From Thermoplasmatota archaeon (GTDB lineage Archaea > Thermoplasmatota > Penumbrarchaeia > Penumbrarchaeales > Penumbrarchaeaceae): a stretch of 22,780 nt of DNA. The stretch lies in assembly GCA_965234725.1 (NCBI GenBank), contig CBDDUX010000110.1:1-22780 (forward strand). Direction: 5' to 3'. The position numbers and the translations under genes are program-made. Shown in pieces: positions 2,022 to 5,175 of this stretch (the stretch's first letter is position 1; the number at the start of each line of letters is the position of its first letter). The notes beneath the pieces were generated by a model. It did not search any database, was not told where the DNA came from, and was given only the letters and a program-made list of their open reading frames with translations.

Positions 2022-2451
2022 GTTTTATTAAAATAAAGGAGAAAAATGATGTGATTTTCCGCTTTCAACACGTTTTTGGAAAATTGTGATCTTATTAGTA
2101 TTAAAACCTATTGTAACGAAAAATATGGAACGGATCTATTCGAATCGAGTTAATCCTACATCTGAGACACACATAGGGTCCTCGATGCTTATCCATGCGG
2201 AAGGTCTGGCGAGGTCCTTCGATCCGAAAGAGGTCATCAGGTCCGCTACACTGATAATAGATCATCCATACGGAAGGATAGCATCCATCAAGAGAAGGAT
2301 CTCTGAAATTGAGGACCTAATTGAATAACCCTGAAAACAGTCCCTACATCGACTGGGCAGAGATCAGAGAAAAATACTCCAGACTAGAAGAGTCCTTTTC
2401 CGAAGATGGAGACCACAAATATGCATCAATGCGGAAGAGGTCCTCTCTGAA
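2022..2451 (+). pseudogene. Decayed direct duplicate of the upstream region and 5' end of the ABC-F gene (copy of ~3217-3819)
   Basis: Collinear with 3217-3819; ATG 2185 corresponds to ATG 3373. It carries a 180-nt in-frame deletion removing Walker A (about 3453-3633), a +1 frameshift near 2321 (stop at 2326-2328), a 1-nt deletion near 2431 and scattered substitutions. Confidence 0.93.
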
Positions 2452-2562
2452 TGTCAATTGTTACATATGCTCCATTGGAATCAACTCATCCATTTGTGAT
2501 TCCCTCAGATGATCGCCCAAGAAAATATTAGTTTTTGATACCATTTCAATATGAACCAAATT

Positions 2563-2697
2563 GGGGTATCCACTTAGCTCCCAAAGACACATGAAATCTG
2601 CAATTACAAAGATATTTATATATCAATATATTTTAGATAATATCTGCCGTTATATGCCATTATATCATAAAACTTTTAGGAGTAAAGTGGATACCCC
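2563..2697. mobile_element. 135-bp MITE-like element with GGGG...CCCC TIRs and 14-bp TSD
   Basis: Left end GGGGTATCCACTTAGCTCCCAAA (2563-2585); right end reverse-complemented GGGGTATCCACTTTACTCCTAAA (2697-2675). The first 13 nt are identical, 20/23 overall. The immediate flanks ATATGAACCAAATT (2549-2562) and ATTTGAACCAATTT (2698-2711) match 12/14 as direct repeats. Excision extends the wHTH ORF in frame. Confidence 0.8.
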
Positions 2698-3005
2698 ATT
2701 TGAACCAATTTATGATCGCGCTCCAGATTCAAGATGAATTTTCTATCCCCCAACGAATATTCCAATATGAAAGATTCGATCTGCGATCGAAAATATTTTG
2801 TTTTACCACCATTGTCATGATAAGAATGGTCTTCTTCCATTAAATTCAGATCTTGAAGGGTTTTTACTATTCGATAGCACTTAAACCTAGGAATCTTAAG
2901 ATTATCAGAAATGTCTCTTACAGATCTCGATGTCCCTGAAGTGTAATATAAGATCGAGAGATACCTATTATCTGTGAGATATTTCCATAATTGACTTAAA
3001 TCCAT
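2676..3005 (-). CDS. Winged helix-turn-helix transcriptional regulator (archaeal ArsR/HTH_20-like), C-terminus replaced by MITE sequence
   Basis: HTH-like RSVRDISDNLKIPRFKCYRIVKTLQDLNL plus wing GGKTKYFRS. Aligns by eye with 11893-12231. AGAGGT SD upstream. The last 7 codons (MGYPLYS) and the stop come from the element's right end. Confidence 0.85.
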   Translation of the reverse strand: MDLSQLWKYLTDNRYLSILYYTSGTSRSVRDISDNLKIPRFKCYRIVKTLQDLNLMEEDHSYHDNGGKTKYFRSQIESFILEYSLGDRKFILNLERDHKLVQMGYPLYS

Positions 3006-3372
3006 GGTCTACCTCTTAAATTCTATAGAAGATATTGTTCTTATCAATATCATTAATAATATACTAATATCCACTTCAATGTTTATTATATATTGTGTGC
3101 ATATTCCATACATATCATAGTATTATGTTCAGCATTAAACTGATGTTTTATACTATTATGCATAATTAATACGCATCATTTATAAATATGCGAATCTCAA
3201 TATTAAGCCATCAGACGTTTTATTGAAATAATGGAGAAAAACGATGCGATTTTCAACACGTTTTTAAAAAATCCTTGTTTGTTTGGTATTTGAACCGATT
3301 GTAAAGAGAAATATGTACCAAAACTTTGCGAATTGAGATAATCCTATATCGGAGACCCACATAGGGTCCTCG

Positions 3373-5175
3373 ATGCTTATCCATGCGGAAGGTCTGGCGA
3401 GGTCCTTCGGTCCGAAGGAGGTCATCAGGTCCGCTACACTGACCATAGATCAAGGCGACCGGATAGGTTTCGTTGGGTCCAACGGATCAGGTAAGACCAC
3501 CCTTATCCGGTTGCTCATGGGGGAGCTCCGTCCCGATTCAGGGGACCTCACAAGGAGAACCGATTCCATAGGCTACCTTCCCCAGTTCCCTGATTTTCCT
3601 CCAAATGCCAAGGTCTCTGATGTCATAGGGACCCCATACGGAAGGATAGCATCCATCAAGAGAAGGATCTCTGAAATTGAGGACTTGATGAATAACCCTG
3701 AGAATAATCCCGACATGGACTGGACAGAGATCGGTGAGGAATACTCCAGACTACAGGAGTCCTTTTCCGAAGAGGGAGGCCACAAATATGCATCAATGGC
3801 GGAAGAGGTCCTCTCTGAAGTGGGTCTGGAAGGATCCTTCCTCCCGAGGAAGCTGAAGGACCTTTCCGGAGGAGAAAGGGGAAGGATCTTGCTGGCAAGG
3901 GTCATTGTACAGGCAAAGGACGTGGACCTCCTGTTCCTTGACGAACCAACCAATCATCTTGATGTGGAGACAATGGAATGGCTGGAGGAATACCTCCACG
4001 ACCTCAACACATCCATTCTGATGATATCGCACGACAGATACTTCCTCGATAGTACCTGCAATAAAACCATGGAGATCGAAAAAGGGAAGGTTAGGACCTA
4101 CAACGGAAATTATTCAAAGTACCTGATAGCCAAAGAAGCCGAGTTCATGATAAGATCTGCAGAAGCTGAACACAATAGAATAGAGAGGAACAGACAGTCT
4201 AAGGTAATTGAGGAACAGCAGAGGAAATGGGGGTACAAGACCACGTTCAAGACCAGACAGAAACTGCTGGAAAAAACGGAAATCGTTCAAGCCCCGACAA
4301 AAGAGCATGGTATAACTATGAGAATGGATACCACCGACCGCTCGGGAAAGAACCTGATCATGATTAAGGATATGAAGGTCCTCCGAGAGGGGAGACTTGT
4401 CATTGACGATATCAATCTGGATGTGGATAAAGGGGACATCATTGGAATATTCGGACCCAACGGATCAGGGAAGACCACGTTCCTCAATACTCTCATCGGT
4501 GAACTACCCCATACCGGTGATCTCTGGGTTGCACCGGGGGCAAGGATCGGGTACTTCTCTCAGGGACATGAACTGCTGGATATGGACATCACACCCGAGG
4601 AACAGCTGCTCAACGCAGTTGGAAAGGATAACAAGGCCCTTGCAAGGGGGATACTGGCCAAGTTCCTCTTGACCGGTCACGACGTGGAAAGGGAGATATC
4701 GACCCTTTCAGGTGGCGAGAAGGCCAGGGTCGCTCTTGCTCTTCTCATTGCTGAAAGAAGGAACCTGCTACTTCTGGACGAACCTACCAATCATCTGGAT
4801 ATCAGGTCAAGGACTGCGATCGAGTCCGCTCTTTCAGCATACAAGGGAACCATCGTCATGGTGACCCACGACCGCTATCTTTTGGACAAGCTCTGCACCA
4901 GGATGGCCTTCATAAAGGATGGGAAGATGGTCGTTCTGAACGGTACTTATTCTCAAGTTAAAGGTGACAGGTCCCTTCAATCCGTGATCGAACAGGCGGA
5001 AGCCTACAGGGTCGTCTCAGCTTTCACGGATTGGAAGACAAGGACCAGATACAGGTCAGGTGACAGGGTCCTGATAGCCGACAGTGAGATGGAAAGGTTT
5101 GAAGAGGCAATAGACAAAGGATTCCTCAAGCGTATAAGGGGAAATGAGAAGAAGAAGGTGGATCGACCTCTTTAA
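3373..5175 (+). CDS. ABC-F family ATP-binding protein (ribosome-associated; Uup/YdiF/EttA-like)
   Basis: Two ABC domains (GSNGSGKT, LSGGE, LFLDEPTNHLD, SHDRYFLD; GPNGSGKT, LSGGEKAR, LLLDEPTNHLD, THDRY), a helical arm insert, a YNGNYSKY-initiated interdomain linker and no TM segments. Confidence 0.96.
   Translation: MLIHAEGLARSFGPKEVIRSATLTIDQGDRIGFVGSNGSGKTTLIRLLMGELRPDSGDLTRRTDSIGYLPQFPDFPPNAKVSDVIGTPYGRIASIKRRISEIEDLMNNPENNPDMDWTEIGEEYSRLQESFSEEGGHKYASMAEEVLSEVGLEGSFLPRKLKDLSGGERGRILLARVIVQAKDVDLLFLDEPTNHLDVETMEWLEEYLHDLNTSILMISHDRYFLDSTCNKTMEIEKGKVRTYNGNYSKYLIAKEAEFMIRSAEAEHNRIERNRQSKVIEEQQRKWGYKTTFKTRQKLLEKTEIVQAPTKEHGITMRMDTTDRSGKNLIMIKDMKVLREGRLVIDDINLDVDKGDIIGIFGPNGSGKTTFLNTLIGELPHTGDLWVAPGARIGYFSQGHELLDMDITPEEQLLNAVGKDNKALARGILAKFLLTGHDVEREISTLSGGEKARVALALLIAERRNLLLLDEPTNHLDIRSRTAIESALSAYKGTIVMVTHDRYLLDKLCTRMAFIKDGKMVVLNGTYSQVKGDRSLQSVIEQAEAYRVVSAFTDWKTRTRYRSGDRVLIADSEMERFEEAIDKGFLKRIRGNEKKKVDRPL

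Follow-up and report, generated by a model that had tools for sequence, protein, structure and literature searches.

An IS1595-derived MITE with an 8-bp target-site duplication in a Thermoplasmatota archaeon

A 141-bp element at positions 2560-2700 of a Thermoplasmatota archaeon contig can be assigned with high confidence to the IS1595-derived MITEs, as a non-autonomous derivative of the IS1595 family. Positions are those of the window, by which we mean the whole stretch of 22,780 nt that was analysed (contig CBDDUX010000110.1 of assembly GCA_965234725.1, forward strand). The element is flanked by an 8-bp target-site duplication, recurs elsewhere in the same genome, is absent from the same site in a related strain, and has its ends in common with a transposase-bearing IS1595 element of the same genus. 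A first-pass annotation had read it as a candidate mini-casposon of 135 bp with a 14-bp target-site duplication. The main value of the present analysis lies in correcting that reading, under which the element would have ranked as the first non-autonomous derivative of a casposon. What remains is an archaeal MITE family for which a parent element and an exact empty site are available and a T-N6-A target pattern is suggested; it is of use in annotating these uncultured marine-sediment archaea and in masking repeats that break their assemblies.

Borders, ends and composition of the element

The element and its immediate flanks comprise the following features.

2560..2700, plus strand: MITE, ATTGGGG...CCCCATT, non-coding, 141 bp; defined by its copies and by related-strain contigs that skip 2552-2700
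2552..2559, no strand: left copy of the 8-bp target-site duplication, TGAACCAA; defined by a joint at which 8 letters fit both sides
2701..2708, no strand: right copy of the 8-bp target-site duplication, TGAACCAA; defined by the flank repeats and the empty-site joint
2560..2585, plus strand: left terminal inverted repeat; defined by the inverted-repeat arms and by ends common to IS1595 elements
2675..2700, minus strand: right terminal inverted repeat; matches the right end of the IS1595 element of genome G023 at 26 of 27 positions

The inverted-repeat arms, at 2559-2585 and 2675-2701, are 27 nt long and 85% complementary. The inverted repeats originally reported at 2563-2585 and 2675-2697 are real and fall inside these arms, with their 13 terminal nucleotides perfectly matched, and the description of the interior as AT-rich is borne out by a GC content of 0.305 for 2560-2700, compared with 0.457 for the whole window. 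The borders first given (2563-2697, 135 bp) have to be moved outward, as the three A/T bases beside GGGG and CCCC belong to the element; matches between copies end 3-4 bases beyond the GGGG/CCCC runs rather than at the Gs. The two 14-mers that had been taken for a target-site duplication are indeed present at 2549-2562 and 2698-2711 and agree at 12 of 14 positions, but they are composed of three flank bases, the 8-bp duplication and the 3-nt tip of the element, and the true duplication is 8 bp long.

Folded as RNA, the MITE forms a single long hairpin (-42.1 kcal/mol, z = -5.64), a strength of folding that lends some support to the idea that the repeat is immobile and retained because it serves the host as a structured RNA or a regulatory hairpin. 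Such a hairpin is formed, however, by any element with inverted ends. The copies described below are flanked by their own 8-bp duplications and an empty site exists, both of which argue for a mobile element, and in an Rfam search with the MITE no family came near threshold (the best score was 22.8 bits, the gathering score being 120), the matches being plant microRNA hairpins only and far below threshold. We therefore regard a host-function hairpin as highly improbable and treat the feature as an IS1595-derived MITE.

A related strain carries the empty site

The insertion could be read directly from contigs of two sequencing runs, X2 and X3, in each of which one contig joins position 2551 straight to position 2701, skipping 149 bp, with 8 letters at the joint that fit both sides. 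The two contigs cover the window from 2413 and 2373, respectively, to 2551 and resume at 2701. Mismatches to the window flanks number 7 in 139 and 28 in 424 positions for the X2 contig, and 11 in 179 and 15 in 289 for the X3 contig, which indicates that both come from a related strain. X2 and X3 represent one sample, from a study other than that of a third run, X1, and count as a single independent observation. The skipped 149 bp equal the 141-bp element plus one copy of the 8-bp duplication, and thereby fix the borders at 2560-2700 and the duplication at 2552-2559 and 2701-2708 independently. The empty-site allele that the first-pass annotation had proposed to look for is thus present in related-strain contigs.

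Of the words sampled from window positions 2100-3300, 92% occur in run X1 and small shares in X2 and X3. Loose ends in X1 at 2558/2559 and 2700/2701 run into other flanks, as other copies of the element would give.

Copies in the genome

The host genome (G000) comprises 3.54 Mb in 114 contigs and is 97.65% complete. It contains six near-identical copies of the MITE (92-100% identity), five of which, including that of the window, are identical, and all six lie in different flanks. A mismatch-tolerant scan followed by inspection added three diverged full copies and a partial one, so that the whole-genome tally stands at nine full copies and one partial copy, again with all flanks different. The copies outside the window are these.

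C3:7038-7181: MITE copy, 100% identical, from a search of the own genome
C3:66-208: MITE copy, 100% identical, from the same search
C88:2171-2313: MITE copy, 100% identical, from the same search
C40:67562-67703: MITE copy, 100% identical, from the same search
C59:13441-13583: MITE copy, 92% identical, from the same search
C26:90938-91080: diverged full MITE copy, from the mismatch-tolerant scan and inspection
C64:17857-17999: diverged full MITE copy, from the same scan and inspection
C50:730-869: diverged full MITE copy, from the same scan and inspection
C38: partial MITE copy, from the same scan and inspection

The other copies that the first-pass annotation had proposed to look for exist; they are small and non-coding, each in its own flanks. 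Six near-identical copies, together with an empty-site allele, place the feature far beyond chance. That five copies are identical suggests a recent burst, a timing deduced from this identity.

Several observations concern the surroundings and abundance of the copies. The copy at C3:66-208 lies 65 nt from a contig end. Genes of the AbiEi/AbiEii toxin-antitoxin type (C59:11682-13215) are located directly upstream of the copy on C59, and a second AbiEii gene is found on C106 (C106:12341-13264). In run X1 the summed contig k-mer depth over the MITE (2551-2714) is about 30-40 times the flank depth, a value that sums all organisms in the sample and is not a copy number; the excess over the six near-identical assembled copies may come from copies that were not assembled or that belong to other organisms.

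The target-site duplication is 8 bp long

Duplications were assessed by a systematic comparison of all tip lengths across 15 elements of the family. Nine have an exact 8-nt duplication in strict register with 3-nt tips: the window element (TGAACCAA), both C3 copies, those on C88, C59, C64 and C50, the copy on contig C88 of genome G010, and the full-length element of G023. Two more (those of G022 and C26) show a duplication with a 1-nt offset in AT-repeat flanks, and a recognisable duplication is missing from the remaining four (C40, G010:C12, G017:C11 and the G021 insertion sequence). When the 14-nt frame of the earlier reading is laid over the elements, the inner eight positions match 8/8 in 9 of 14, and the outer six match at 0-5 positions (at most four in 13 of the 14 elements), which is the level expected by chance.

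The exact 8-bp targets are TGAACCAA, TAATATAA, TAATATGA, TATATCTA, TTCTTTTA, TAAATGAA, AATTTTAT, TTTGATTA and TATGTTAA. Eight of these nine archaeal duplications start with T and end with A, and a preference for T-N6-A targets within AT-rich DNA is thereby suggested. At the C64 copy the outermost bases of the duplication are swapped (A..T rather than T..A) and yet are duplicated, and these bases accordingly belong to the target and not to the element. A 6-bp duplication around a 143-bp element was also considered and is ruled out, because the repeats all extend one base further on each side, that of C64 included, and because 8 letters are common at the empty-site joint.

Transposase-bearing elements in the same archaeal family

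A pattern search for the end motif in 24 genomes of the family revealed inverted pairs 1,029 and 1,041 nt apart (GGGG to CCCC) in two genomes of the same genus, G023 (contig C1) and G022 (contig C11). The G023 element spans 1,035 nt (1498-2532 of locus L036), is flanked by the duplication TATGTTAA and contains an intact ORF of 311 aa. This ORF matches PF12762 DDE_Tnp_IS1595 over the full model (1.5e-31), PF12760 Zn_ribbon_IS1595 (1e-11) and NCBIfam NF033547, IS1595 family transposase (4e-58), each above the curated cut-off. The G022 copy is decayed and broken by stops. In a third genome, G021, the element encodes a protein 78% identical, has no clean duplication and carries the end variant GGGGTATCAGYTT, as do the MITE copies on C26 and C64. 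Two further genera of the family (genomes G010 and G017) also have end pairs at a MITE-sized spacing.

The right ends of the MITE and the G023 element are identical at 26 of 27 positions, and 16 nt are common to their left ends. The MITE interior (about 90 nt) is unrelated to the G023 element, only the ends of about 26 nt being held in common, and an origin of the MITE by simple internal deletion of a full-length element is not shown by this comparison.

The first-pass annotation had stated that no mobilising enzyme lies in the window, and this is correct. In the host genome, an IS1595 transposase was sought with the G023 protein, by tblastn (best E-value 2.5) and with PF12762, and none was found by any of the three, while the PF12762 control matched in Haloferax volcanii. 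Across the order, 5 of 26 genomes have a transposase match, with an intact copy in G023 only; in a sample of the phylum, 6 of 401 genomes have a match at E <= 1e-20, four of them in the window's own family. Copies within the family are close (74-100% identical over intact stretches, and 54% for the decayed G022 copy), and the two phylum matches outside it, at 34-37% identity, are more distant than the bacterial relatives described below. TBP genes are present in the host genome, which identifies it as archaeal; the TBP control matched only the four archaeal control genomes. The MITE copies in this genome are now probably orphans, the assembly containing no cognate transposase.

Bacterial relatives and the probable kind of mobilising enzyme

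With one genome taken per species, tblastn confirmed 617 stretches related to the transposase, and the best 80 of these are all bacterial, with 51-61% identity. Among the 27 relatives listed with their ends, all 27 have ends of the type nn[A/G/T]GGGTATCC or close variants. Judged by eye, 21 of the 27 are flanked by an exact 8-nt direct repeat (20 with 2-nt tips and one with a 3-nt left tip), three by a near repeat with 1-2 mismatches, and three by none. Most of the bacterial duplications listed start with T and end with A, like those of the archaeal elements. Among plasmid sequences, the best matches came from Ralstonia, with genes that bear the annotation 'IS1595 family transposase' and are 57-59% identical; one of them is named ISRama1.

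An enzyme of another kind has to be weighed at this point. Five MITE copies are identical, yet the assembly contains no IS1595 transposase, and the element might thus have been moved by a different DDE transposase of this genome, its likeness to IS1595 ends being convergent. Convergence would have to account for the 26/27 identity to the end of the G023 element and, in addition, for the first 19 nt from GGGG at the MITE left end, which are identical to those of a bacterial IS1595-family element (locus L098). The 8-bp duplication is typical of the IS1595 family, members of which are described in a passage of PMC8101967 as 'usually flanked by 8-bp TSDs' and as having the domains Zn_Tnp_IS1595 and DDE_Tnp_IS1595. 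Furthermore, all 12 exact matches to GGGGTATCCACTT in the genome are the paired ends of the six MITE copies, and no GGGGTATCCACTT pairs at least 1 kb apart were seen there. Mobilisation by an unrelated DDE transposase is accordingly very unlikely, and derivation from the IS1595 family is the reading that we retain.

We put forward, tentatively and as somewhat less probable than its contrary, a scenario in which an IS1595 lineage reached one archaeal family from bacteria, after which the MITE was amplified and the transposase was lost or is unassembled. Its grounds are that close copies in the phylum sample are confined to this family and that bacterial copies share up to 19 terminal nucleotides with the archaeal ends. 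Were this the case, the genome would carry a burst of identical orphan copies that any incoming relative could mobilise again.

The interrupted ORF and its surroundings

The insertion concerns a winged-helix-like ORF that lies on the minus strand and now ends within the element.

2676..3005, minus strand: winged-helix-like ORF of 109 aa, the last 8 codons and stop of which come from the right inverted repeat of the MITE
2461..2551, minus strand: displaced former 3' end of the winged-helix-like ORF, 29 codons and stop; the MITE lies between the two parts

In-silico excision of the MITE lets the frame run to 131 aa, which indicates that the insertion truncated an ORF. The first-pass annotation had placed the insertion within a protein-coding gene, and the MITE does occupy the 3' part of an ORF. 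The empty-site contig spans the displaced 3' end in one piece, and with the variants listed for that contig the frame is open at 131 aa, several variants of the contig being unlisted. In the same incomplete list, 8 variants are synonymous and 12 non-synonymous, with no clear sign of purifying selection. The 109-aa ORF has a weak TrmB match (E = 2.2e-4, below the Pfam cut-off) and, elsewhere in the genome, a single weak paralogue carried by C54 (31% identical, E = 1e-6); a search of a collection of 5.8 billion proteins, confined to 'near' lengths, returned only the query itself. It is uncertain that the winged-helix-like ORF is a working gene.

The surrounding DNA is itself partly duplicated. 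Window positions 2022-2264 and 2266-2451 are together a partial copy, now decayed, of the 5' part of an ABC-F ATPase gene and of the region upstream of it; the intact gene lies at 3373-5175 and the duplicated region at 3217-3819. The two stretches are 83% and 90% identical to the ABC-F region, with 181 bp missing between them. The 765 bp between the duplicate copies (2452-3216) have a GC content of 0.25-0.34 and contain the winged-helix ORF and the MITE. A search of five genomes of the genus for the orthologous locus recovered nothing but the duplicated stretch that lies upstream of the ABC-F gene; neither an orthologous winged-helix gene nor an empty site was found among them.

The casposon reading and a resident casposase-like Cas1

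According to a hypothesis of the first-pass annotation, the GGGG ends would be used by a Cas1-family casposase that generates a 14-bp duplication. In favour of this, the genome contains a gene for a solo, casposase-like Cas1 (G000:C59:6-1229, 407 aa), the best solved relative of which is 6opm_A (E = 1.3e-117, full length); the string 6OPM occurs twice in a Methanosarcina mazei casposase paper (PMC6977970). The gene is located 1.1 kb from the 3' end of a tRNA-Leu(CAG), and the presumed element end at this tRNA, GGGGTATTATAC, has its first 7 nt in common with the MITE end GGGGTATCCACTT. Beyond these seven bases (GGGGTAT), however, a comparison by eye finds one identity in the next 12 positions of the two ends. 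The MITE duplication is 8 bp long, against 14-15 bp for casposons, and its targets are varied AT-rich 8-mers with no preference for tRNA 3' ends or CGCA. The same ends, moreover, flank an IS1595 transposase gene in G023, in G022 and in bacteria; the occurrence of these inverted repeats on an ordinary IS transposase element had been set in advance as the test of the casposon link, which, with the duplication at 8 bp, no longer stands. We consider it most improbable that the element is a mini-casposon, and retain its assignment to IS1595.

The resident Cas1 genes are of interest in their own right. There are two in the genome, on C106 and C59. On C106 the gene is a Cas4-Cas1 fusion with Cas2, Cas3-like and GSU0053/GSU0054-family genes as neighbours, and this region (G000:C106:251-11404, locus L061) is an ordinary CRISPR-Cas locus, Cas3-like helicase included; a tandem-repeat search of C106 for a repeat array detected none. 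On C59 the Cas1 gene stands at the contig start (locus L062, C59:1-2460) and is followed by a 315-aa ORF that has no Pfam match and then by the tRNA gene.

C59:2370-2456, minus strand: tRNA-Leu(CAG), with its 3' end beside the C59 Cas1 region

Read inward, GGGGTATTATAC starts fourteen bases beyond the tRNA-Leu body. A second copy of this 32-nt end is present on C55 (242-305), beside a CGCA-containing tRNA-like fragment. In a search for the other end of the C59 element, only this second end of the same type on C55 was found, the opposite end being unassembled. Passages of PMC6977970 and PMC4779613 give casposon duplications of 14-15 bp for Aciduliprofundum boonei; for M. mazei the length is 14 bp, at tRNA-Leu and with a CGCA motif. 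The layout on C59 and C55 agrees with this published pattern, in which the 14-bp duplication overlaps the 3' end of tRNA-Leu and CGCA is present, and the C59 locus is thus probably a family-2-type casposon, or the remnant of one, cut by the contig end. For those interested in casposons, the casposase-like gene beside tRNA-Leu is the better lead. On C38 (4789-4975) two short stretches on the opposite strand resemble portions of the C59 Cas1 gene (74-81% identity), and may represent a decayed second casposase gene.

Proposed mechanism and comparison with known systems

The proposal that the element is a MITE mobilised in trans stands insofar as a non-autonomous element, its copies and its empty site are concerned; the mobilisation itself we infer. 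The terminal inverted repeats of about 26 nt (ATT/AAT followed by GGGGTATCCACTT...) would serve as the binding and cleavage sites of an IS1595 transposase possessing a zinc ribbon and a DDE domain, which would act in trans. Such a transposase would presumably cut the target in a staggered manner, with the cuts 8 bp apart, and repair of the gaps would in turn yield the 8-bp duplication TGAACCAA. Insertion in the 3' part of the ORF cost it its last 29 codons, in place of which stand 8 codons and a stop supplied by the element.

The parent element of G023 resembles the IS1595 family in its domains (Zn_ribbon_IS1595 and DDE_Tnp_IS1595), its length of about 1.03 kb, its single ORF and its 8-bp duplication, and the ends are likewise of the nnnGGGTATC type. 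These ends may belong to the ISSod11-like sub-group (ISfinder). Among named relatives, the closest one seen was ISRama1 of Ralstonia mannitolilytica, and the Ralstonia copies noted above are those whose proteins lie at 57-59% identity to the G023-type transposase. The archaeal elements differ from their bacterial relatives in their host, an archaeon, and in that their ends have one more base before TATCC than most bacterial ends (ATTGGGGTATCC compared with atAGGGTATCC).

The TIRs of the MITE start with a G run, as do those of the family 2 casposons of M. mazei and A. boonei, and both kinds of end are present in this genome. Family 2 casposons, as described in the literature cited above, are large, encode Cas1, and insert at tRNA 3' ends or CGCA sites with duplications of 14-15 bp. 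The MITE, by contrast, is 141 bp long, has an 8-bp duplication, occupies varied AT-rich targets and carries the ends of an IS1595 element.

Among archaeal elements, the closest counterpart in description is an IS1595-derived MITE of Haloquadratum walsbyi related to ISHwa6, for which Table 4 of PMC3852290 gives a length of 165 bp, 7 copies, an inverted repeat (IR) of 25 and a direct repeat (DR) of 8. Judged by that table entry, the two are alike in being archaeal and non-coding, in size (141 compared with 165 bp), in having inverted repeats of about 25 nt and in their 8-bp direct repeat. The element described here differs in belonging to another host phylum and in that no parent is assembled in its genome, and the two are likened by description rather than by sequence.
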